Below are positions 1,842-12,730 of a stretch of DNA of 64,000 nucleotides, piece by piece; positions within the stretch are counted from its first letter, which is position 1, and every line of letters begins with the position of its first letter. The notes under the pieces were generated by a model, which did not search any database, had not been told where the DNA came from, and worked only from the letters and a program-made list of their open reading frames with translations. The DNA comes from Owenia fusiformis (Eukaryota): NCBI GenBank assembly GCA_903813345.2, contig CAIIXF020000001.1, positions 14,818,001-14,882,000 on the forward strand, given 5' to 3'. The position numbers and the translations under genes were made by a program.

Positions 1842-2207
1842 GTATGTTAATATCAACAATTTCAAACAAAAATTATAAATTGAGGTGAATAATGGCAATA
1901 AGGGTGAAAACTTCATAAAGATCAAAAATCACCAAGAATAAATCAAAACAAATCACAACAAATCAAAACAGCAGCCAATCTCAGTCAGCGGGGATCATTA
2001 AGCACACCACCCTAAATTGACACAAATTATTGAAATGTTGTGAAAATACAAATGTGTTGATAATGAAAAGCAAATTTTTCATTTGCTTCAACTTGTTAAA
2101 ATTAGTCCTAGTTTCTATATGTCTTATCTTGTTATGGAAGTATGGGAAAATATATTCTATCCTTTATACCCCTTAATTGACCTAACTATATTTTCTCCCA
2201 CTCAAAG

Positions 2208-2356
2208 GCACGTGAGGAGATGAAGTGTAAGATGGTGGAGGCATTTGATACATTCGAGGGAGAGCACAAGGGCAAGTACTACCCACTAGAGGGTATGTCA
2301 CCCGAGGACCAAAAGAAACTTACAGAGGATCATTTCTTGTTTAATGACTCTGACAG
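2208..2356 (+). CDS. AK: Arginine kinase exon
   Basis: aAG acceptor, phase 0; AREEMKCKMVEAFDTFEGEHKGKYYPLEGMSPEDQKKLTEDHFLFNDSD(R); donor AG|GTAAGT, phase 2. Not in the ORF track; translated by hand. Confidence 0.96.
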
Positions 2357-2775
2357 GTAAGTGCAGGAGTAGTGATGGGGCCATATATAGGTAAGGGCAA
2401 GAACTGGAATAAGATGTGAGGGCCATAGATACTAGGTTAAAGATTGGAATTGATTTTAACCATAGCGGAAGGCCATAGGTTAGGTTAAGGATTGGAATCA
2501 ACGTCCAGTGTCTGTATTAACTAGAGAAGGGTCGGTCACGGTTCGGTTCGGTACGATTCTCGGTTCTTGTCTCTCGGTTCGGTCGGTTCTTCAATCATAT
2601 ACTTAATAAGGTGGGCCTCATAAATTGCAATTGGTGCCACAAATATGGCAAGATAAAAAGGTGTTTCACTTTTATTTTGTATTATTAGGGGATATAATTT
2701 TATTTTCAATCTTATAAATGATCAATATGGAATGATGATAGCTGATAATCATTGAATTTTTATGGAATTAAATAA

Positions 2776-2906
2776 CTAGAATTGAACTATTTGGAGATGG
2801 CTATCAACAAGTCGCTTGCCCCGTATTAGATGGGAGGGATTTCTTTTTAAACTGGGTCTGGTTGGGTAAGACCTTTCAATATGTTTCCTCACGGCAGATG
2901 TGTTTC
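2776..2906 (-). pseudogene. hAT transposase remnant, second exon (second half of BED zinc finger)
   Basis: Minus-strand acceptor ttttcAG (AG at 2908-2907), then (G)NTSAVRKHIERSYP, matching the BED motif GNTSxLxxHLxxxHP with the last His changed to Tyr. Phase matches the donor at 10704. Confidence 0.7.
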
Positions 2907-3040
2907 CTGAAAACTTAAATCAAATCACGTGATACAAGATGGAGGGTGGAAAATAAATTTGCTCGTTCCGGGAAAAGTCCAAATTGTGCATATCTAGGAG
3001 ATAATTATACACGTTATATGGATAAATATTATATATAAAC

Positions 3041-4090
3041 CAGTGATCTCCCCAGGATTTTTTCATAGCAGGGGGGGATTTTTTAACAAGTTTCGCCGCT
3101 CGCTTCGCTCGCATGATTTTTGTGCCAATTTTTGCCGCTCGCTTCGCTCGCTATATAAACACCAATTCTCAATTAGAAAACCTTTTATTTAACAATACAT
3201 GATAATATGCTTGTAGTGTCATGACTATTCATTGTTCATTGTGTTTCCTTGAAGTCTTCTGTCCCTACATCTTCTGGGGTGCATGTCAAACCACCTCCCC
3301 CATGCTGCCTCAAAATCGAACACCTCTTCCCTTGGTCCATTTATGATAATGTTGAGGACCCTGTCCACTGTTTCTACTTTCATTCTATTCTTTAGATAAG
3401 TCTTTTTAATTTTACCCATTTTTTTTTGAATTTCCCGCATAAAGAACCGGAAGTCGAACTTCTTTATCATGACAACCATCAAAAGCATGATTTGAACATT
3501 AATTCGTTCGCAATTATAATAACTAAAAATAATACTTCATTGTCAAATTGTAGTTTTAGTCGTTTTTATGTTTGTTTTATTCCAAATTGGCGATTTTGAT
3601 GATCGGTGATCATATCATTCCGCGTTGCAGTATAGGGGTAATCTGCGCCAGGTTCAACTGTTAACTTTTTCTAATTTTCTGAACGCACGCATCAAATGAA
3701 CGATTTTGATAGGTTAGAATGTTTTGGGCGCATGCGCATACGTAGTCAAATCAAGTGATCGAACCGAACCTGGGGCAGATTATGTCGATGACGCACGATT
3801 AGTAATAGATAATTTGATTGGATATTTCGTAACTAATCATGAGTTTTGAGCCAATCAGAAGACATTTAAGATTCGGCCTTCGGAATGGCAAATCGGGAAA
3901 AACTTTTTGAAAACTTTTTGAATTTTATGTGATTTCGTCGAATATCCAGGAGAATAAAATAATGTACGTAAGTTTTGAAGTAGCGGGGCGCTTAGCAGGG
4001 CGGGCTAAGCAAGCAGGGGGGGGGAACAGGGCGGGGAAAACGAGTGAGCAGGGGGGAGCGCCATGCAATTAGATTCTGGGGAGAACCCAG
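3041..4090 (-). mobile_element. Non-autonomous hAT (hAT5-like, 5-bp TSD) inserted in the retrotransposon 5' UTR
   Basis: Imperfect TIRs CAGTGATCTCCCCAGGA / TTCTGGGGAGAACCCAG (13/17); flanking direct repeat TAAAC on both sides; GC-rich subterminal repeats (GCCGCTCGCTTCGCTCGC x2, AGCAGGGGGG); transposase C-terminal remnant inside. Confidence 0.75.
3225..3420 (-). pseudogene. hAT transposase C-terminal (dimerisation-domain) remnant, ZNF862-like
   Basis: IKKTYLKNRMKVETVDRVLNIIINGPREEVFDFEAAWGRWFDMHPRR fits the KTxxRNRL..xLxxLMxIxINGP..FDFxxAxxxW tail of ZNF862-like hAT transposases. Confidence 0.7.
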
Positions 4091-4156
4091 TAAACATACC
4101 GTTTTTGGAACAAGTGAACTTTCAAACAAGCCTGCGCTGTCTAAAGAGCATAAACC

Positions 4157-5422
4157 ATGCCACCAAAGAAAACACATGGATTTTCGAAAGACGAAATGGA
4201 GGACATATTGGATCAATATGTGCAAAAACAAAATGCCAGCATAATAGAGACGGTCAACAATGCAGTTAGAGATTCGTTGAAAGTCGAATTAGGAGAAGTT
4301 GCGAAAGCTTTGGAAAATGTAAGTGCTATTTCCACTGAGAATGCAAATGCAATAAAGACATGTAAAAATGACATTCGAAACATTGAAGCCAGGCTAACGT
4401 TGACAAATGAACAATTGGCAAACACAGAAAGTCAATTGAAATCGGCTATGATCAAACTTGAAGACAAACAATTGGAAATGGACGTCTATTCGAGGCGAAG
4501 TAGTCTCCACTTCAAAGGAATCCCTGAAGCTGAAGGTGAGAACTGTGAAAATTTGATAAAAACTTTCATAAGGGATAAACTAGGCTTAGATTCGGAAAGC
4601 ATTAAATTTGAAAGGGTACATAGGATACCCCTAGGTCCTAAAAGTAAATATAAGTATAACAGAATGATCACAGCAAAATTCAACTGGTATAAAGATCGTG
4701 AAAGTGTTTGGAACAATAGATATAAACTCAAGGACCATCAAGGCTGTTATATAGAAGAAAGCTTTCCCGCTCAGGTAGAACGAAATCGTAAGATCTTGCT
4801 CCCAGTTCTGAAATTAGCAAAGGAACAACCTAACATTAAAGCGTCCCTGATCGCTGACACCTTAGTAATTGAGGGCAAAAGATACAAAGTTCAAGACCTA
4901 CACCTCCTACCTGAAAATATAAACCCATATCTTACATCTATCCGGAGAGTAGGAGATATAATACTATTCAACAGTGCCACATCCCCACTCGGAAAGGGAT
5001 ATCCATGCTCGTTTACAGAAAAGGGCAAAATCTTTAACTCAGTGTCCCAGTATGTTGCATATCAACAAGCCATTGAATTTCAAGATGTAGATTCTGCTCA
5101 CAGAATCATGAATTGTCAAAACCCAGCAGTGTGCGACAGAATTGGCAAAAATGTGCAAGGTTTCTCACAAGCCCTATGGGGAATGAAAGAAGATAGTGTC
5201 CAGGAAAGAGGGGCAACCCTCAAGTTCAACCAGAACCCACATCTGAGAGTAGCCCTTGAAGCCACAAATGGTTCAACTATAATTGGTGAATGCAACCCAT
5301 ATGATCTCGTATATGGCAATGGGTGCAAAATAACTGATATCAAAGCAGGAAAACCTGAGGAGTGGAGTGGAAAGAATGCTGGGGGACAAATAATCCAGCG
5401 CGTAAGAGACAATATGAAGTAA
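4157..5422 (+). CDS. Retrotransposon ORF1p (421 aa): coiled coil + L1ORF1/Tnp22-type RRM-CTD + C-terminal NADAR (YbiA-like) domain
   Basis: Heptad region aa ~20-110; YSRRSSLHFKGIPE...FERVHRI...ITAKF...YIEESFP...RKIL...LVIEGKRY is the L1 ORF1 RRM/CTD pattern; aa ~268-421 has NADAR motifs LKFNQNPHLRVALEAT, ECNPYDLVYGNG and WSGKNAGGQIIQRVR. Confidence 0.9.
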   Translation: MPPKKTHGFSKDEMEDILDQYVQKQNASIIETVNNAVRDSLKVELGEVAKALENVSAISTENANAIKTCKNDIRNIEARLTLTNEQLANTESQLKSAMIKLEDKQLEMDVYSRRSSLHFKGIPEAEGENCENLIKTFIRDKLGLDSESIKFERVHRIPLGPKSKYKYNRMITAKFNWYKDRESVWNNRYKLKDHQGCYIEESFPAQVERNRKILLPVLKLAKEQPNIKASLIADTLVIEGKRYKVQDLHLLPENINPYLTSIRRVGDIILFNSATSPLGKGYPCSFTEKGKIFNSVSQYVAYQQAIEFQDVDSAHRIMNCQNPAVCDRIGKNVQGFSQALWGMKEDSVQERGATLKFNQNPHLRVALEATNGSTIIGECNPYDLVYGNGCKITDIKAGKPEEWSGKNAGGQIIQRVRDNMK

Positions 5423-6487
5423 GTTGTACCAGACGAAACATTTATTCTTTGTATTTATCAGCAAAAACTACTTGTTAGACTGAGTAGAATTATCTCTTGG
5501 ATAGCTTAGAAACAGTCCCTTTTTCAATCAAACAATTGAATATTTCTTGTTTATTATGAAATACATATATTCAAAGGGACAAATGGAGCTACAGTGGCCT
5601 GGTAATGTTAAAAAAGAGAGCAATATCATTAGCTAATCAGAAACCTAGCAGATAGTGATAAAGGACTCTTGCTGAAGACTATTGTTTACAAAATACATAT
5701 TCCTTTTAGTTTGTAATTTGCTTGTAATACATCCAGTGTACTGGAGAAATAGTTGAAAAATATTTTCTAGAATGTAACAATCTCAACATTAGATCATTCA
5801 TATAGCTCATTTCAATAGCTTTGCAGTTAAAACTTGCACTGCCTGTTTACATGCACATTACTTATGAAGGGATATTGCTGCCCTGAGATGGTCAACCGAT
5901 CGGCCAATGAAATTAGCGCTAGCTTTCTTTAAGGTAGTTGCACAATAAGCAGAAAATACATCAAATAGACTACTGGCAATATGAGATTTCAGAAAATATG
6001 ACATAAAATCTTTCATATTGTGGAATTTATGGTTCACAACTGGATCTGCACTCATAGTTAGAAGAAAGAGTCATGCTCTCTCATTTTAAATTAAGATTTA
6101 CCATGGATAATTAAGCATAAACAATTATTTTATAACATTACCGAATGTTCAACTACCTTAAGTTCTGTTTCTTCTAAAAAATGTTTGGAAATGTGTTCAG
6201 AATATGATTTTGAAAATTATGTTTCTGAAATACATGAATTATTCTGGTAATTTATGTTACCTAACAAGGTGATTTTTATTTTAAATACTAGTCTTGTAGT
6301 AAAATGCACAAAGGATGCAAATAAAGGACTTTTTCTTTTCTTGTATCAGTGAAAATAGGGAAAGGGGTATACTATAAGGGGATGTGTTGGAGGAATGAAA
6401 TTTCAATGAACACTGGAAAGCAGTTACATTTGCATTGTGTGTGCAGCGTTTACTACATAGACAAGGGGTAAGATAAAATTTTGTAGT

Positions 6488-9400
6488 GTGAACTGTCAAG
6501 GCCTTTGTGACCCAACAAAAAGAGTAGATGTCTTCAATTACTTGAAACAAAAACAAATGGATATTATATGCTTGCAAGACATCCACTCTTCTAAGGAAAC
6601 TGAAACAGCTTTTGAAAAGGACTGGGGAAACAAGGCTTTTATTAGTTCCTATAAAACCAACAGTAGAGGCGTAGGCATCTTTATAAGGGAAAATCTAGAC
6701 TATAAAATTTACAGTACAGATATTGATGTAAAGGGAAATTTTGTTATACTAGACATTGAGATAGAGGGTAGGAGATTTTCACTAGTTTCATTATATGGAC
6801 CCAATACTGATTCACCTTCCTTCTATTCAGAACTGAAAAGCAAACTAGAAACTATTGAAAATGCCTCTATGCTCTTGATGGGAGATTGGAATCTAGTTTT
6901 AGATACTGATCTCGATACCTTGAACTATAAACATATCAACAATCCAAATTCAAGAAAAAAGGTTCTAGAGCTATGTGAACAATTAGAACTATATGATATT
7001 TGGAGGGAATTAAATCCTGAGGAGAAAAAATTCACTTGGGTAAGGAAAAAACCACGTCAAATGGCAAGACTTGATTTCATTCTTGGAACAGAGGACTTTA
7101 TTAATTTAACACGGAGTTGTCGTATTTCACCGAGCTATAGATCTGATCATTGTTTAACATTGCTAACCATCGAGAACAATCTTCCAGAAAGGGGTAAAGG
7201 TTTCTGGAAATTCAATTCCTCACTACTGAAAGACCCTGTTTATATCTCTTTAGTTAAAGAAACCATCCAAAACATTAAAACTCAATACGAAATCAAGGCA
7301 GATATTTCAAAATCAGAAACTACTGCAGATCTTTCAATAAATGATCAACTCTTTTTTGAAATGCTTAAATTGGAGATTAGAGGCCAGACTATAAAATATT
7401 CTTCTCAGAAGAAAAAATCGCGAGAGAAAATTCAGCGTGATCTAGAATACAAACTTTTAGTTAAAGAAAAAGAAATAGATAATCTCATTAATAAAGAGAA
7501 ATTTCAAAATGGAATATTTGAGAAAGATATTGAAGAAAAATATGATGAGTTAGAAAAAATTAAAAGTGAAATGAAAGAATATAGAGAACACTATGTGAAA
7601 GGTCTTATGACCAGGGCAAAATTAGAATGGTACGAATTTGGTGAAAGGGCGACTAAGTATTTCAGTGGTTTAGAAAAAAGAAATTATGTAAATAAATTAA
7701 TTTGTCAGGTGGAAGTTGATGGGGAACTGATAACAGATCCAAAACTTATTCTTTTGGAACAGAAGAAATTTTACGAAAACCTTTACAAAAGTAAAATACA
7801 AAATAATGAGGAAAATAATGACTTCTTTTTAAAAAATAACAATGCCATTAAAACCTTAAGTGAAGAACAGAAACAATCTTGTGAAGGCCTTTTAACCGAA
7901 AAAGAATTGAAATTTGAATTGAAAAGTGCAAAAAATGGAAAATCCCCGGGATCGGATGGTTTTAACGTTGACTTTTACAAATTCTTTTATCCTGATATAG
8001 GAAAATACTTACTCAAATCGTTAAATGCAGCCTATACACTTGGCGAATTATCAGTGACACAGAAACAAGGGATCATAACATGTCTACCCAAGGTGAACAA
8101 AATCAGAAAATACTTTAAAAACTGGAGGCCAATCTCATTATTAAATGCGGATTATAAACTCCTCTCATCAGCCTTAGCAACAAGAATGAAGTCAGTTCTG
8201 CCGCATATTATTTCTATAGATCAAAAAGCATATCTAACGGGTCGAGAGATGTCAGAAAACACGCGTCTAGTCTATGATGTTATAGATCATCTGAATCGAA
8301 AAGGACACCGAGGGCTATTACTATTAGCAGATTTTGAGAAAGCCTTTGATAGTATCGAATGGGTATACTTAGAAAAATGTCTGAAAAAATTCAATTTTGG
8401 GGACGGATTCCTTAAATGGTTCAAGATTCTATATAATGAGTCTGAAAGTTGCGTTATAAATAATGGCTTCTTTTCAAGTTTTTTCAAATTAAAGCGTGGC
8501 TGTCGGCAGGGAGATGCCCTCTCCTGCTATGCATTCATCCTAGCTCTGGAACCTTTATGTTTAAAACTTAAAAACGACAAAGACGTTGAGGGTATTAAAG
8601 TTTATAATGAAGAAGTTCAAATGGGAATGTATGCAGATGACACTTTTGTATTTTTAGATGGTACAGCAAAATCACTAAGACGCTGCCTATGTATTTTTGA
8701 TATGTTTTATGAAACGTCAGGATTAAAGTTAAATATAGAGAAAACGTCAGCTATCTGGTTAGGTAGTAAACAAGGTTCTAAAGAAATATTATGCCAAGAG
8801 ATTCCACTTAAGTGGGAAACAAATTTCAAACTTCTTGGAATACACCTATCTTCTGATTTAAAAGATGTAGAATCTCTCAACTTTGAAAACAAAATTACTG
8901 AAATGCAAAATGTTATAAGTAGGTATAAAAGAAGAAATCTATCCTTAATGGGAAAAATTACTGTACTCAAATCCTTTGTGTTGCCGAAGGTAGTACATTT
9001 GTTCCTTGTCTTGCCAAAATTGTCAAACCCCTGCCAAACTAGAATCAAACAATTATTTACTTCTTTCATTTGGAACTCAACAGTTGCAAAAGTAAGTTTT
9101 TCACAAATTGTACAAGATTTTGACGACGGAGGCTTAAAAATGATTGATCCCAAGATCTTTGAACATTCACTCAAATTGACATGGTTGCAAAAACTTCAGA
9201 AATCTGGCACATGGCAAGACATTGCACTTAATATTTTAAATGTGAATTCAAAACGTGAACTCTTTGCATATGATTCCAAATCCTTAAAGAAAATAGAAGA
9301 AAATATTTCAAATAAATTTTGGAAAGATCTTGTTTACACATTTAGAATATACACTGAACAAAAAGAGAAAGAGGCAAAGAATGATTCAAAATTGAGTGCT

Positions 9401-10288
9401 GAACTTGCTATGTGCAACACTTGGGCAAAGCTTACAAAGAACCAAAATGTCCAAAAAATATTGAAGAATGTAAGAGTCAATGGAGAGACAATTGTACTAC
9501 AAGATATGTTTCATCAGTCAAATAGAATTCTGAATCAAGAGGAATTCAATGAAAAGTTCAATACAAACATTAATTTTCTTGATTATTTGAGTCTCAGAAA
9601 TACAATTCCTAATCAGTGGTTGAGCGATATTAAGAAAAACGGCGATAGTTTAAATAACTTTGAAAGACAAAAACAACACATAAAAAAGTTCATGGGCCAA
9701 AGTAAGATAAGTAAAATTATATATTGGGAACTTATAAAAAGTGAAGAGACAAACATAAAGTACATCACTGGTTGGAATAAAGATCTGAATCTGTTACTTA
9801 ACAAAGAAGATTGGAAAATGATCAATAGAATCAATAAAGTCAGCAATTTTGAACCAAAATTAGCTTCTTTCAATTTTAAAATTCTTCATAGATTTTTGGC
9901 CACCAACACATACTTGAAAATGTGTGGATTAGCAGAATCAGATCTGTGTACTTTTTGTAAAGTAGAACCAGAGTCAATTTGTCATCTCCTCTATGAGTGT
10001 AAAGTGATAATGGAACTCATAGTAGTCATTAAAAACTGGTTACCAGAGGAATTGACAGGACTTTGTACAAAACAGAATATTTTAATAGGACCAGTATGTA
10101 TAAATGATAGAACAATTATCCTGACAAATATGTGGAGTATATTTAAAAGATATGTGTACCTATGCAAATACTCAATGTTAAGACCTACCTTTAAAGGATT
10201 TAAAGCAAATGTAATATCTTATTGTAATATTGATAAGCAAATAGGCAGAGAAAAAAGGTGGGAAATTATGGGTACTAGATTAGATTAG
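6488..10288 (+). CDS. Retrotransposon ORF2p (~1270 aa): APE endonuclease + reverse transcriptase + C-terminal CCHC (zf-RVT-like)
   Basis: EN motifs NCQGL, CLQDIH, LYGPN, GDWN, RLDFIL, SDH; GFWKFNSSLL; RT motifs KSPGSDG, NWRPISLLNADYK, DFEKAFDS, GCRQGDALS, YADD (8630-8641), LNIEKT, KLLGI; CTFC-x8-H-x4-C. The frame is open from 6461 but has no ATG ahead of the EN domain. Confidence 0.97.
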   Translation: MNCQGLCDPTKRVDVFNYLKQKQMDIICLQDIHSSKETETAFEKDWGNKAFISSYKTNSRGVGIFIRENLDYKIYSTDIDVKGNFVILDIEIEGRRFSLVSLYGPNTDSPSFYSELKSKLETIENASMLLMGDWNLVLDTDLDTLNYKHINNPNSRKKVLELCEQLELYDIWRELNPEEKKFTWVRKKPRQMARLDFILGTEDFINLTRSCRISPSYRSDHCLTLLTIENNLPERGKGFWKFNSSLLKDPVYISLVKETIQNIKTQYEIKADISKSETTADLSINDQLFFEMLKLEIRGQTIKYSSQKKKSREKIQRDLEYKLLVKEKEIDNLINKEKFQNGIFEKDIEEKYDELEKIKSEMKEYREHYVKGLMTRAKLEWYEFGERATKYFSGLEKRNYVNKLICQVEVDGELITDPKLILLEQKKFYENLYKSKIQNNEENNDFFLKNNNAIKTLSEEQKQSCEGLLTEKELKFELKSAKNGKSPGSDGFNVDFYKFFYPDIGKYLLKSLNAAYTLGELSVTQKQGIITCLPKVNKIRKYFKNWRPISLLNADYKLLSSALATRMKSVLPHIISIDQKAYLTGREMSENTRLVYDVIDHLNRKGHRGLLLLADFEKAFDSIEWVYLEKCLKKFNFGDGFLKWFKILYNESESCVINNGFFSSFFKLKRGCRQGDALSCYAFILALEPLCLKLKNDKDVEGIKVYNEEVQMGMYADDTFVFLDGTAKSLRRCLCIFDMFYETSGLKLNIEKTSAIWLGSKQGSKEILCQEIPLKWETNFKLLGIHLSSDLKDVESLNFENKITEMQNVISRYKRRNLSLMGKITVLKSFVLPKVVHLFLVLPKLSNPCQTRIKQLFTSFIWNSTVAKVSFSQIVQDFDDGGLKMIDPKIFEHSLKLTWLQKLQKSGTWQDIALNILNVNSKRELFAYDSKSLKKIEENISNKFWKDLVYTFRIYTEQKEKEAKNDSKLSAELAMCNTWAKLTKNQNVQKILKNVRVNGETIVLQDMFHQSNRILNQEEFNEKFNTNINFLDYLSLRNTIPNQWLSDIKKNGDSLNNFERQKQHIKKFMGQSKISKIIYWELIKSEETNIKYITGWNKDLNLLLNKEDWKMINRINKVSNFEPKLASFNFKILHRFLATNTYLKMCGLAESDLCTFCKVEPESICHLLYECKVIMELIVVIKNWLPEELTGLCTKQNILIGPVCINDRTIILTNMWSIFKRYVYLCKYSMLRPTFKGFKANVISYCNIDKQIGREKRWEIMGTRLD

Positions 10289-10411
10289 ACTAGTGTGGTT
10301 AGATGCCTTAAAAAAGAATATGATGGAAAATTGTGTGATTTCTATGATATTATGAATATTGTATATGTTAATGTAACTGCTTTCAAATGTTTTCTATGAA
10401 TAAAAAAGGAA

Positions 10412-10442
<31 letters not shown>

Positions 10443-10704
10443 ATATGGATAGCACAGATGTCCTTCAGTTGGGAATAACAGTGCAGTGGGCTAGGGGGGT
10501 GTTTACCCAAATTCTCAACCTGACTTAGGGCCTGGGGTAGGACACATGAAAAAGTGTATATATCAGTCATAAAAATGTTACTATGAGCGGTAATAGAAGG
10601 CAGTTACAAGATAGGGAATGAATGGAAGTCTAATAAAGATCGTAGTCTTAATTTTTCAAATTGAAAAAAATTCACAAAAAGTTTCAATCACAAAAATTGG
10701 AAAC

Positions 10705-10866
10705 CTGCAGCGTATTTCAATGTCGTGGTGCACAACCTACATAGGGTAGACGTATTCTCATCGTAGAAACCGAGTACTTCCAAGCATCAAACTTCGGCAT
10801 TGCGGGGAAAGGCTCTATTATGGTTTTACTAGCTCTTTGCCTAAGACTTCGAAAACTGTCCGCCAT
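10705..10866 (-). pseudogene. hAT transposase remnant, first exon (first half of BED zinc finger), one frameshift
   Basis: ATG at 10866: MADSFRSLRQRASKTIIEPFPAMPKFDAWKY. Restoring one T gives (F)GFYDENTSTLCRLCTTTLKYAA(G), i.e. WKYF...CxxC...KY, ending at donor CAG|GTTT (10704). Confidence 0.72.
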
Positions 10867-11424
10867 TTTTAAAACACAAGAGTTCCCGCGCAAAATTAAT
10901 TCACGCTCGCAAATAGAATTATGTTCCCTCGAGACGTGGAAGCACAATGAAATATCCAAGGAGACGATTTTGTTACCGTATGGATCGTTTAAAGTTGTTC
11001 AATTGTCGTTTAAATGGTACTTTCATTCGCTATTTAGATGAAATAGAGCTATAATTATTTGCGCAAAACATTGGTATTCATGTTACACTGTACGAAAATA
11101 GAGTATTTCCCCGGGAATGATGCAACCGTTCTGGACTCGGTTCTTGGTGATCAGACGGTCCCAGTAGAACCGTGAGGTCAAAAACCGTGGTTAATCGAAC
11201 AGAACCGTAACCGACCCTTCTCTAGTATTAACCCTAGACGTGTGCTGAGTGAGTTTACTCGCTGTGACGTCACATTCCATGTAGACGATCAGCGAATTTA
11301 CTCCTCACTTGATTATGTTGAAATTGTTTGCAAAAAGTCAGAAGTCATTACCTTAATTAATTTGCTGCTATTATGTCACCACCAAAAGTGGTGACATATT
11401 GTTATGGTCTCCGTTTTTTGCGAC

Positions 11425-11486
11425 GGCGGTTGGCGTCCGGCGGTTGGCGTCCGGTGGTTGGCGTCCGGCGGTTGGCGTCCGGCGTC
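11425..11486 (+). repeat. 14-bp tandem repeat (GGCGGTTGGCGTCC) x ~4.5
   Basis: Directly visible tandem copies. Confidence 0.9.
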
Positions 11487-11539
11487 TGTAACAATTTCTT
11501 ACAACTTCCTATAACTTAACAAATACTGTTTAGACTGAC

Positions 11540-12730
11540 TTCAATTTTTTTCTAAATCATCTACATGTTCTCAGAAGTTCAAATCTGACTTTAGATTTGA
11601 CATTTGACCTTCAATGACCTTCTCAAGGTCAAAAAGGTCTTTTTTCAACTTGCTTCACATTGACTAAATTTTTTTTCAAAATCATCTACATGTTCTCAGA
11701 AATTCAAATCTGACTTTAGATTTGACTTTAGATTTGACATTTGAGCTTCAAATCTGACTTTATATTTGACATTTCACCTTCAATGAAAAGGTCTGTTTTC
11801 AACTTGCTTCAAATTGACTAAATTTTTTTTTCAAAATCATCTAAGTGTTCTCAGGAATTCAAATCTGACTTTGGATTTGACTTAAGATTTGACATTTGAC
11901 CCCCAATGACCTTCTCAAAGTCAAAAAAGGTCAAAAAGGTCTTTTTTCAACTTGCTTCAAATTGACTAAATTTTTTTTTCAAAATCATCTACATGTTCTC
12001 AGAAATTCAAATCTGACTTGAGATTTGACATTTGACCTTCAATGACCTTCTCAATGTCAAAAAAGGTCAAAAAGGTATTTTTTTATCTTGCTTCAAATTG
12101 ACTAAATTTTTTTTCAAAATCATCTACATGTTCTCAGAAATTCAAATATGACTTTAGATTTGACATTTGACCTTCAATGACCTTCTCAAGGTCAAAAAAG
12201 GTCAAAAAGGTCTTTTTTCAACTTGCTTCAAATTGACTAATTTTTTTTTTCAAAATCATCTACATGTTCTCAGAAATTCAAATCTGACTTAAGATTTGAC
12301 ATTTGACCTTTAATGACCTTCTCAAGGTCAAAAAAGGTCAAAAAGGTCTTTATTCAACTTGCTTCAAATTGACTAATTTTTTTTTTCAAAATCATCTACA
12401 TGTTCTCAGAAGTTCAAATCTGACTTTAGATTTGACATTTGACCTTCAATGACCTTTTCAAGGTCAAAAAGGTCTTTTTTCAACTTGCTTCAAATTTACT
12501 TAATTTTTTTTCAAAATCATCTACATGTTCTCAGAAGTTCAAATCTGACTTTACATTTGACCTTCAATGACCTTCTCAATGTCAAAAAAAGTCAAAGAGG
12601 TATTTTTTCAACTTGCTTCAAATTGAAGAATTTTTTTTTCAAAATCATCTACATGTTCTAAGAAGTTCAAATCAAACCTTCTTAAGGTCAAAAGGTATTT
12701 TCCAACTTGCTTTAAATTGACCAAATTGTT
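11540..12730 (+). repeat. Satellite array, ~136-bp unit, ~9 copies
   Basis: AAAATCATCTACATGTTCTCAG recurs at 11981, 12116, 12252 and 12388 (spacing 135-136), with more degenerate copies on both sides; units are rich in TGACCTT/AAGGTCA. Confidence 0.92.

Follow-up and report, generated by a model that had tools for sequence, protein, structure and literature searches.

The locus described here lies in a 64-kb window of the Owenia fusiformis genome (by window we mean the entire 64,000-nucleotide stretch of DNA that was analysed) and holds a LINE copy with two genes, whose features are collected in Table 1. The target-site duplication TTATATGGATA occurs twice in the whole window, both strands counted (3014-3024 and 10441-10451), and this exact 11-bp repeat together with the tail of 28 A identifies the copy as one that inserted recently, in agreement with the youth ascribed to it in the first-pass annotation. 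Both flanks belong to a high-copy repeat in which one insertion is visible, and no second copy of the LINE was found in the 64-kb window. Sequence-specific insertion into a repeated target is typical of many Tx1 families. The genes of the element are ORF1 and ORF2 only, with no other ORF of at least 150 aa near them; Rfam families were absent from positions 2000-12000, and two ORFs near 58.8 kb gave nothing significant with Pfam.

Table 1. Features of the LINE locus, in window coordinates
Feature	Position	Strand	Remarks
5' target-site duplication copy	3014..3024	+	TTATATGGATA, exact 11-mer
LINE element incl. nested insertion	3025..10440	+	7,416 bp; bounded by target duplication and poly(A) tail
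Nested repeat in LINE 5' UTR	3036..4090	.	1,055 bp; not LINE sequence
ORF1	4157..5422	+	421 aa and a stop codon; one open frame for coiled coil, RRM, CTD and NADAR
ORF1p long helix, aa 11-112	4187..4492	+	single helix in model; presumed trimerising coiled coil
ORF1p RRM (aa 116-201) and C-terminal domain (aa 205-250)	4502..4906	+	model secondary structure, Foldseek
NADAR domain, YbiA type, aa 262-420	4940..5416	+	Pfam, NCBIfam, 8BAU sequence and fold matches
ORF1-ORF2 spacer	5423..6460	+	1,038 bp
ORF2, stop to stop	6461..10288	+	1275 codons
ORF2 endonuclease	~6473-7162	+	Pfam, structure matches
ORF2 RT	8105-8848	+	Pfam, structure matches
ORF2 zf-RVT	9839-10009	+	Pfam match
Poly(A) tail	10413..10440	+	28 uninterrupted A
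3' target-site duplication copy	10441..10451	+	TTATATGGATA, exact 11-bp match to 5' copy

The apparent 5' UTR of 1.1 kb is inflated by a nested insertion of 1,055 bp. We assign positions 3036-4090 to this insertion and not to the LINE because they are absent at the same locus from the contigs of other runs; in contigs of runs X1 and X5, position 3035 is joined straight to 4091 (with 5 shared letters) and the left flank 2925-3035 is retained. The inserted sequence has TAAAC at both flanks and short terminal inverted repeats (3047-3058 and 4073-4084), its word depth in run X5 is 10-40 times that of ORF1, and an 87-aa minus-strand ORF inside it gave no significant Pfam match.

ORF2 encodes the enzymatic machinery expected of an APE-type non-LTR retrotransposon of the L1 superfamily, which is the level at which we place the element. 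Pfam recovered RVT_1 (1.5e-31) and zf-RVT (2e-6), with Exo_endo_phos at 4.1e-5 and 23.9 bits, slightly below the cut-off of 24.5, and the protein matched human L1 ORF2p (8SXT, E 4.5e-98 over residues 5-903) as well as the L1 endonuclease (E 7e-24 to 7e-21). A ‘Bacteria’ taxon label given to ORF2 by the Protein Atlas was set aside, as it rests on 1-2 members. The first-pass annotation had described ORF2 as open over 3.8 kb, and the frame is indeed open throughout, but there is no ATG ahead of the first endonuclease strand: none occurs in frame between the stop codon at 6458-6460 and position 6557, where the first ATG lies past that strand, as against relatives L016, L017 and L023, in which an ATG precedes it by 3-6 codons. 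Initiation of ORF2 at a non-AUG codon is conceivable. The QE(T) endonuclease motif has Asp in the ORF2 of the window and Glu in three relatives. Since the spacers of nine related elements measure roughly 0.4-1.8 kb, the 1,038 bp that separate ORF1 from ORF2 are typical of such elements, and this spacing of about 1 kb distinguishes the element from human LINE-1.

ORF1p has the coiled coil-RRM-CTD order of human LINE-1 ORF1p, upstream of an EN-RT ORF2 as in the human element, and ORF1p proteins are known to trimerise. Our AlphaFold2 model has a mean pLDDT of 93.6, and in Foldseek comparisons its front part matched the human L1 ORF1p trimer (2YKP/2YKO, E ~7e-7, TM 0.64 on target), with the end of the 11-112 helix falling inside the match; further matches of the RRM-CTD were to 2YKQ, 2LDY and 2W7A. 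This predicted likeness is one of fold only, as sequence similarity to the human protein is too low for Pfam Transposase_22: this L1 RBD-like family gave no match to ORF1 at E<=1, and was matched by 1 of 72 ORF1 relatives (E<=0.001). Whereas human ORF1p stops after the CTD, the protein encoded in the window adds about 160 aa of NADAR. The domain matches Pfam NADAR (PF08719) over ORF1 residues 283-420 (E 2.4e-26; 93.4 bits, cut-off 35.1), covering profile positions 18-162 of 163, and TIGR02464 over residues 276-420 (E 1e-25, 90.8 bits against 73.7); its pLDDT is mostly 94-98. In Foldseek the model matched the YbiA-subfamily NADAR of Phytophthora nicotianae (8BAU, E 2.4e-9, TM 0.77 on target) and E. 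coli YbiA (2B3W, E 1.9e-5, TM 0.73), and the fold is common to all three, although 8BAU and E. coli YbiA are free-standing proteins and the NADAR of the window is fused to ORF1p. The profile and structure comparisons thus bear out what had been read from the letters, namely that an ORF1p of the L1 superfamily continues in frame into a NADAR domain.

We are nearly certain that ORF1 is an L1-superfamily LINE ORF1p with a C-terminal YbiA-type NADAR fusion, and that it belongs to a family of such proteins. A chance reading frame, the private capture of a host exon or an assembly chimera could in principle mimic the fusion, but the strength of the Pfam NADAR match and the 143 of 144 listed relatives that are co-linear over both parts dismiss these possibilities, and an independent contig from another run spans 4091-5944 with 4 letters that differ from the window; we give an artefact practically no chance. 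A search of a protein library with ORF1 returned 10,758 matches at E<=1e-3 and 444 cluster representatives at E<=1e-30. The count of 143 in 144 refers to the listed matches of 300-650 aa, in which both the RRM-CTD and the NADAR were covered, so that the fusion is not private to the copy in the window, and Pfam NADAR was present in 72/72 relatives scanned. The closest proteins are from Owenia fusiformis itself (35-58% identity), and the NADAR frame is open across families that are 32-58% identical in the domain, among them at least four Owenia proteins; in one relative, P0004, similarity is lost some two thirds of the way through the domain. In the Protein Atlas, the clusters nearest to ORF1 were 100% NADAR and labelled Annelida (with 3 and 1 members of known phylum), and homologue searches with a 72-row alignment and with the NADAR region gave 7 matches and 1 match, respectively. 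Metagenome loci, which we sought with a 10-row alignment of the family, showed a long same-strand ORF downstream in all 13 cases with at least 2 kb of downstream sequence; among the downstream ORFs scanned, RVT_1 was found in 8/8 and an endonuclease domain in 7/8. These downstream reverse-transcriptase ORF2s are of at least two very different types, one L1-like and shared by the window element with L016, L017 and L023, the other distant and seen in L004, L007, L010, L014, L015 and L020. The family of NADAR-bearing ORF1 proteins is large and old, and the fusion is common in the LINEs of marine invertebrates.

The first-pass annotation knew of no characterised ORF1-NADAR fusion, but the library contains hundreds of diverged full-length relatives and the fusion is on published record. 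PMC12477816 mentions that several Crassostrea gigas families of Tx1 LINEs, taken from Repbase entries, carry a YbiA-family NADAR in their ORF1 protein, so the element in the window adds a further member to a fusion already in print. In a literature search whose coverage lay outside subscription journals and Repbase Reports, this was the only article found to link NADAR with transposable elements. The oyster elements, which that article mentions in passing, share with ours a YbiA-type NADAR on a lophotrochozoan LINE ORF1; ours comes from an annelid, and its NADAR lacks the conserved Glu and Lys.

To compare this copy with its family we used a 145-row alignment of ORF1-NADARs in 8BAU numbering. 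Glu occupies the E43 position in 138/145 rows and Lys the K50 position in 131, where the copy in the window has Ser297 and Gln304 (both read from this one copy of the element), and the Trp found at the W133 position in 124 rows is Tyr386. On the other hand, the copy agrees with the majority at W89 (Trp in 141 rows; W341), at D130 (Asp in 126 rows; D383) and at E125 (Glu in 140 rows; E378), and keeps the glycine motifs of the domain. The six key residues are thus S,Q,W,E,D,Y as opposed to the canonical E,K,W,E,D,W, a change in three of six, whereas all six canonical residues are present in 17 of 24 metagenome ORF1-NADARs. Set directly against 8BAU, the copy also has Lys for R79, Phe for Y84 and Asp for K75. 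The first-pass annotation had seen the NADAR motifs in order from end to end; the profile does match nearly end to end, but the reading of GKIFNSVSQY as a NADAR motif overlooks the replacement of the conserved Glu by Ser. In the Owenia-like relatives of the copy this Glu is likewise replaced, by Ser or Thr, and two relatives (L019 and L021) have Ile instead of the conserved Lys.

The residues at issue have been studied in E. coli C7 NADAR, where E43 and K50 of 8BAU correspond to E88 and K95 and are largely conserved across the superfamily (PMC11543638). In that enzyme the Lys is essential for hydrolysis of ADPr-guanine, while replacing the Glu by Ala mattered little in vitro (PMC11543638). Glu at the E125 position defines the YbiA subfamily, and phage NADARs have His there as opposed to the Glu of the window NADAR (PMC11543638). 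C7 belongs to another, DarT1-associated NADAR subfamily, and it is from its mutagenesis that loss of function is argued here.

Substitution rates indicate that the NADAR domain of the family is under purifying selection. Omega was 0.07 between L019 and L021 and 0.10-0.24 where L020 was one of the pair; dS had reached saturation in three other pairs, with dN at 0.24-0.26. Because L019 and L021 lack the Lys and yet show an omega of 0.07, non-canonical variants can be strongly constrained. The identity of NADAR relative to that of RRM-CTD was 0.55-0.77 in the Owenia-like group versus 0.93 in the remaining pairs, and by this measure NADAR evolves faster than RRM-CTD in the Owenia-like lineage. Since the active-site residues are conserved and selection is purifying (omega 0.07-0.24), the NADAR of the family at large is probably an enzyme. 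For the copy in the window it is likewise probable, to judge from the residues themselves, that the domain has been weakened or changed.

The proposal that the NADAR in the window is an active eraser of guanine-linked ADP-ribose, shielding the RNA or integration intermediates of the element from a host transferase of the pierisin/CARP-1 type, is weakened for this copy because Ser297 and Gln304 replace a Glu and a Lys conserved in the superfamily, the Lys being essential in C7 NADAR. It also presupposes restriction of LINEs by an ADP-ribosyltransferase, of which we know of no case, and we consider it rather unlikely. For the family at large an eraser is plausible. What speaks for one in this copy is that it retains both the fold of a NADAR and the Glu of the YbiA type, in a family whose active site is conserved under purifying selection, and the recent insertion, which suggests that a master element with Ser297 and Gln304 probably transposed. 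Published precedents point the same way: the P. nicotianae YbiA-subfamily NADAR hydrolyses ADPr-guanine (PMC11543638), orphan NADAR-type antitoxins of phages act against DarTG1 (according to the accessible part of PMC11825919), and homologues of CARP-1 occur chiefly in Bivalvia, with others known from Cnidaria, Porifera and other Bilateria (available portion of PMC12945103). Alternatively, the domain might process the RNA of the element in some other way or act on a small NAD-derived molecule; it may act on RNA ends that bear ADP-ribose or NAD-derived groups, or carry out a YbiA-like N-glycosidase reaction. The match to TIGR02464, which is named as a riboflavin-intermediate N-glycosidase, the RNA-binding character of ORF1p (a fold match) and the RNA processing that PMC12477816, in its available text, proposes for the NADARs of transposable elements and RNA viruses would all accord with this. 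It is hard to see, however, what purpose a metabolic glycosidase would serve in the RNP of a retrotransposon, base-linked ADP-ribosylation is reversed by every NADAR family tested, and Table 1 of PMC12945103 assigns end-linked groups to macrodomain-type enzymes (both statements from the portion of that article available), such that we regard this explanation as distinctly improbable.

There is a third way to understand the domain in this lineage, as a dead relic whose frame is open by youth, or as a binding or scaffolding module that helps ORF1p to fold or assemble. The three changed residues of six, the faster evolution of NADAR than of RRM-CTD in the Owenia-like group and the truncated similarity of P0004 are in keeping with it, as are the lack of a start codon before the endonuclease and the Asp for Glu in QE(T) of the accompanying ORF2. 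Against it stand a frame that has stayed open in families as little as 32% identical and in at least four Owenia proteins, a confidently modelled domain, and the retention of E378, D383, W341 and the glycine motifs; we hold this explanation to be doubtful. Because those three residues are kept, residual or altered activity of the NADAR in the window is possible.

The account toward which we lean, with modest confidence, is that the NADAR of the family is an enzyme acting on ADP-ribosylated nucleic acid and that it has drifted in the window copy. NADARs are known to cleave ADP-ribose off guanine and cytosine in both DNA and RNA, and by analogy with these characterised enzymes we tentatively put forward base-linked ADP-ribose on nucleic acid as a possible substrate of the family NADAR. 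ORF1p would coat the LINE RNA, each ORF1p bringing a NADAR domain with it, and NADAR would clear base-linked ADP-ribose from that RNA or from the DNA ends of target-primed reverse transcription. In the window copy, as in the Owenia-like group around it, the domain has drifted; given the Glu, Lys and Trp substitutions and the faster evolution of NADAR, we infer that it is probably weakened, re-specialised or merely binding in the window. Although speculative, and in our estimation unlikely, it is attractive to think that LINE NADARs are active erasers of G- and C-linked ADP-ribose on the RNA or integration intermediates of the element, selected by pierisin/CARP-1-type nucleic-acid ADP-ribosyltransferases of marine invertebrates, or by such toxins from microbes, that restrict retrotransposons. 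If so, the conflict between phage NADAR and DarT1 would have its parallel in animals, and the Ser/Gln variants of the Owenia-like group would mark a later shift in the arms race, to a changed substrate or to a decoy or reader role.

The phage comparison extends to orphan NADARs of T4-like phages that neutralise DarTG1 and that, as in our element, are carried by a mobile parasite without a partner toxin (accessible part of PMC11825919). The phage-bacterium system has a known transferase in DarT1 and for the LINE none is known: Pfam found no ADP-ribosyltransferase domain in ORF1 or ORF2, and unlike in the DarT1-NADAR pair there is no adjacent transferase toxin gene. Precedent for an enzyme domain in a LINE ORF1 comes from the esterase of CR1/L2-type elements, which differs from NADAR in its SGNH fold and lipid-related chemistry (available text of PMC3905857). 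Retrotransposons have also captured a YbiA-family NADAR independently, in the Gypsy LTR elements of Ectocarpus, where according to the available text of PMC12477816 the domain sits at the N-terminus of Pol in a brown alga, as opposed to on an RNA-coating ORF1p.

Taken alone, the copy in the window is one more example of a fusion that, by the accessible text of PMC12477816, was already in print. Its family is of wider interest: a NADAR with conserved active site is found on the RNA-coating ORF1p, under strong purifying selection and alongside ORF2s of two or more widely divergent lineages, and this provides indirect evidence that, in marine invertebrates, the nucleic acids of retrotransposons encounter base ADP-ribosylation. 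We know of no role of nucleic-acid ADP-ribosylation in animal genome defence. The NADAR-LINE family offers ready enzymes with which to test such an encounter, and the window copy is a natural variant without the Glu/Lys pair, useful as a contrast to canonical members. In raw RNA reads from two runs, of which about 6% each was sampled, ORF1 was covered to a depth of 0-1.3, and a peak of reads at 8748-9315 traces to a divergent copy that lies within other sequence.

The frame of ORF1 closes with a NADAR domain, as the first-pass annotation had read from the sequence. Residues 283-420 match positions 18-162 of the 163-position Pfam profile PF08719 (E 2.4e-26; score 93.4 bits, gathering cut-off 35.1), and the NCBIfam model TIGR02464 is matched at E 1e-25 (90.8 bits, threshold 73.7), the domain taking up the final 140-160 residues of the protein. 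Among solved structures, the sequence finds one relative only, NADAR 8BAU of Phytophthora nicotianae (E 9e-9). A confident AlphaFold2 model built on 72 relatives (mean pLDDT 93.6, pTM 0.74) comprises one helix (aa 11-112), alpha/beta domains (aa 116-250) and an additional domain (aa 262-420); when the NADAR part was compared with the PDB by Foldseek, 8BAU was found at E 2.4e-9 (TM 0.77 on target) and E. coli YbiA (2B3W) at E 1.9e-5 (TM 0.73), so that the profile and fold comparisons proposed earlier both agree with the original reading. The front part of the protein resembles the human L1 ORF1p trimer (2YKP, 2YKO and 2YKQ; Foldseek E ~7e-7, TM 0.56-0.64), with the RRM-CTD and RRM structures 2LDY and 2W7A as further matches. 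The Pfam L1 ORF1 model Transposase_22 found no match in the protein, and its identity as an ORF1p therefore rests on fold and context. We regard it as virtually certain that this is a LINE ORF1p-NADAR fusion and a member of a large family.

The downstream ORF2 has an endonuclease match besides RVT_1 (1.5e-31) and zf-RVT (2e-6), and human L1 ORF2p aligns with it over residues 5-903 (E 4.5e-98). The exact target-site duplication, whose 11-bp word has no third occurrence anywhere in the window, the pure tail and the uninterrupted ORF2 bear out the suggestion that the element is young: an L1-superfamily LINE was inserted here recently by a genuine target-primed event.

Features of the LINE element and of the repeat nested in it (window coordinates)
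Feature	Position	Strand	Remark
Target-site duplication	3014-3024 and 10441-10451	+	11 bp, exact; flanks element
Nested repeat	3036-4090		1,055 bp, within LINE 5' UTR; not LINE sequence
87-aa ORF in nested repeat	3225-3488	-	open frame
ORF1	ATG 4157 to stop 5420-5422	+	single open frame, 421 aa
Spacer ORF1-ORF2	downstream of ORF1	+	1,038 bp, between open frames
ORF2	6461-10288	+	1275 codons, open from stop to stop
Poly(A) tail	10413-10440	+	28 A, uninterrupted

The autonomy of this copy is in doubt: after the stop at 6458-6460 the first in-frame ATG of ORF2 comes only at 6557, and the QE(T) endonuclease motif has Asp where three related metagenome loci (L016, L017 and L023) have Glu. The ATG at 6557 lies past the first endonuclease strand, whereas in those three loci an ATG precedes this strand by 3-6 codons; either the window copy is non-autonomous, or the family starts ORF2 without an AUG. 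RNA reads from two runs cover ORF2 at 8748-9315 to a depth of 11-14 on one strand only. All of them carry an identical set of differences and one common foreign sequence upstream of 8770, and we rejected them as a transcript of this copy in favor of a diverged ORF2 fragment inside another transcript.

A full HMMER pass with ORF1, covering 1.84 billion cluster representatives, gave 10,758 proteins at E<=1e-3; tightening the cut-off left 3,503 at E<=1e-10 and 444 at E<=1e-30, the looser counts taking in proteins that match one part only. From the best listed matches, word-search matches and Haliotis isoforms we assembled 156 proteins, of which the 144 of 300-650 aa were aligned, leaving out P0003, P0005, P0007 and P0131 as too short and P0006, P0008, P0011, P0013 and P0153-P0156 as too long. 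Among these, RRM-CTD and NADAR were both covered and co-linear in 143 of 144, which rules out a fusion confined to this copy, and Pfam NADAR was present in all 72 relatives scanned. Five related proteins (35-58% identity to the window ORF1) come from Owenia fusiformis itself, and the closest Atlas clusters are labelled Annelida, a label drawn from very few records. The relatives also include multi-NADAR proteins of the abalone Haliotis rufescens. Tandem Pfam NADAR stretches were seen in P0006 (4,240 aa, 7 stretches) and P0011 (3), which are H. rufescens XP_048255699.1 and XP_048255702.1, as well as in P0008 (5) and P0013 (4); they are ~28-35% identical to the LINE NADAR, and these proteins may be host genes akin to the one that donated the LINE domain, or may derive from it.

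When metagenome contigs were scanned with a 10-row alignment, 31 loci came up, and 23 of these match both parts of the window protein by tblastn. All 13 loci with >=2 kb of downstream sequence have a long same-strand ORF there, with RVT_1 in 8 and an endonuclease domain in 7 of the 8 scanned; spacers are as a rule ~0.4-1.8 kb, so that of the window is normal. These loci have ORF2s of two markedly different kinds. Those of L016, L017 and L023 share 32-39% identity with the window ORF2 over their full length and are L1-like, human L1 ORF2p matching that of L017 at E 2e-106. Those of L004, L007, L010, L014, L015 and L020 either have no tblastn match to it at 1e-5 or share 24% in the RT only; human ORF2p matches that of L015 at only E 4e-17, and zf-RVT was found in none of these six. 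Hence an ORF1 with NADAR is found alongside at least two LINE lineages that are deeply separated, suggesting an old origin or an exchange of ORF1 modules between LINE clades.

In 8BAU, ADP-ribose is held by E43, K50, R79, Y84, D86, W89, R93, E125, D130 and W133; according to the same source, E125 defines the YbiA subfamily, and it is the residues corresponding to E43 and K50 that are largely conserved superfamily-wide (PMC11543638). There, the lysine of the E. coli C7 NADAR is essential for ADPr-guanine hydrolysis, with Arg able to substitute in vitro, and changing the Glu to Ala matters little in vitro yet abolishes rescue in cells (PMC11543638). Residues were matched by HMMER alignment to 8BAU, whose chain numbering is 2 off that of the paper, with five landmarks in agreement.

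Active-site equivalents in the window copy and in the family (145-row alignment)
8BAU	Window copy	Family
E43	S297	Glu 138/145
K50	Q304	Lys 131/145
K75	D327	Lys 108/145
R79	K331	Lys 46/145, no majority
Y84	F336	Phe 54/145, no majority
W89	W341	Trp 141/145
E125	E378	Glu 140/145
D130	D383	Asp 126/145
W133	Y386	Trp 124/145

All six key residues (E43, K50, W89, E125, D130 and W133) are kept in 17 of 24 metagenome ORF1-NADAR frames, including L016, L017 and L023. Neutral evolution of the domain, the outcome that would have spoken against a function, was not what the related loci gave: NADAR omega is 0.07 between L019 and L021 (dN 0.030, dS 0.433; 157 codons) and 0.10-0.24 in pairs with L020, while in three further pairs dS is saturated at dN 0.24-0.26. 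Selection on RRM-CTD is similar. Conservation, selection and an unbroken catalytic set together point to an enzyme, and judged from sequence the family NADAR is probably a working hydrolase.

At the six positions the window copy itself has S,Q,W,E,D,Y. Among its Owenia relatives the residues are T,K,-,E,D,S in P0001, T,K,W,E,D,F in P0002 and T,R,W,-,-,- in P0004, while P0003 carries Ala in place of the Glu; Glu is thus lost across the Owenia-like group and Lys only in the window copy. Within this group identity is 0.28-0.51 in NADAR versus 0.50-0.73 in RRM-CTD (ratio 0.55-0.77), compared with a ratio of 0.93 over 9,870 pairs of the remaining proteins, which argues for looser or different constraint on NADAR in this lineage. 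The NADAR frame is still open in several diverged Owenia-like families. Since the exact duplication and pure tail imply little change after insertion, the active master of this copy probably had Q304 too. In L019 and L021, Ile, Asn and Ser replace Lys, Asp and Trp; lacking the Lys and yet evolving at an omega of 0.07, this pair counsels caution before a non-canonical site is taken for a dead domain, and shows that such variants can be strongly constrained. On its residues, the NADAR of the window copy is rather unlikely to have canonical activity.

The first-pass annotation knew of no characterised ORF1-NADAR fusion. In the full-text literature, to which most subscription journals and Repbase Reports are external, only PMC12477816 (Genome Biology 2025) ties NADAR to transposable elements: it remarks on the same fusion in oyster Tx1 LINEs, describes a YbiA-family NADAR at the Pol N-terminus of one Ectocarpus Gypsy lineage and suggests a role in processing RNA intermediates. 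The fusion itself is therefore already in print, as a remark only; our finding is real and not new as a kind, an annelid-side member beside the oyster fusion. Added here are the family's size, its conserved catalytic set under purifying selection, the pairing of NADAR-bearing ORF1 with two very different ORF2 lineages, and the finding that the window copy's lineage has lost the Glu/Lys pair.

LINE RNA is coated by many copies of ORF1p. From this coating and the enzymology of free-standing NADARs we infer that a LINE-borne NADAR could act as an eraser of ADP-ribose within the RNP. For the family, ADP-ribose linked to bases, whether in the element's RNA or in integration-site DNA, is a plausible, if somewhat doubtful, candidate substrate. 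According to PMC12945103, cytidine ADP-ribosylation, too, is reversed by enzymes of the NADAR and YbiA types, and CARP-1 homologues are found chiefly in bivalves, with others in Cnidaria, Porifera and further Bilateria. That the domain would counter a transferase of the host, as originally proposed, or of a microbe seems unlikely on present analysis; counter-defence is an attractive hypothesis for the family rather than for the window copy.

The apparent 5' UTR of 1.1 kb is not all LINE: 3036-4090 is foreign to the element. In contigs of two other public runs, which retain the left flank and the element's first 11 bases, the sequence passes directly from 3035 to 4091, with five letters (TAAAC) common to the two joined ends, leaving a true 5' UTR of only ~77 nt. 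The interval is bordered by TAAAC at each end and has 12-nt terminal inverted repeats (3047-3058 / 4073-4084) and a word depth far above that of ORF1, and a Pfam search of its 87-aa ORF gave no match. Being absent from the same locus in two runs, it is a nested, polymorphic and recent insertion of a high-copy repeat. The LINE insertion site (2500-3024, 10452-11000) is a high-copy repeat itself, one contig with a word depth of ~497 running from ~10494 straight to 2919. Set against other copies of this flank repeat, the stretch immediately before the 5' duplication is longer here by 93 bp (2921-3013), which may be a variant of the flank repeat or 5' sequence carried in by the LINE.
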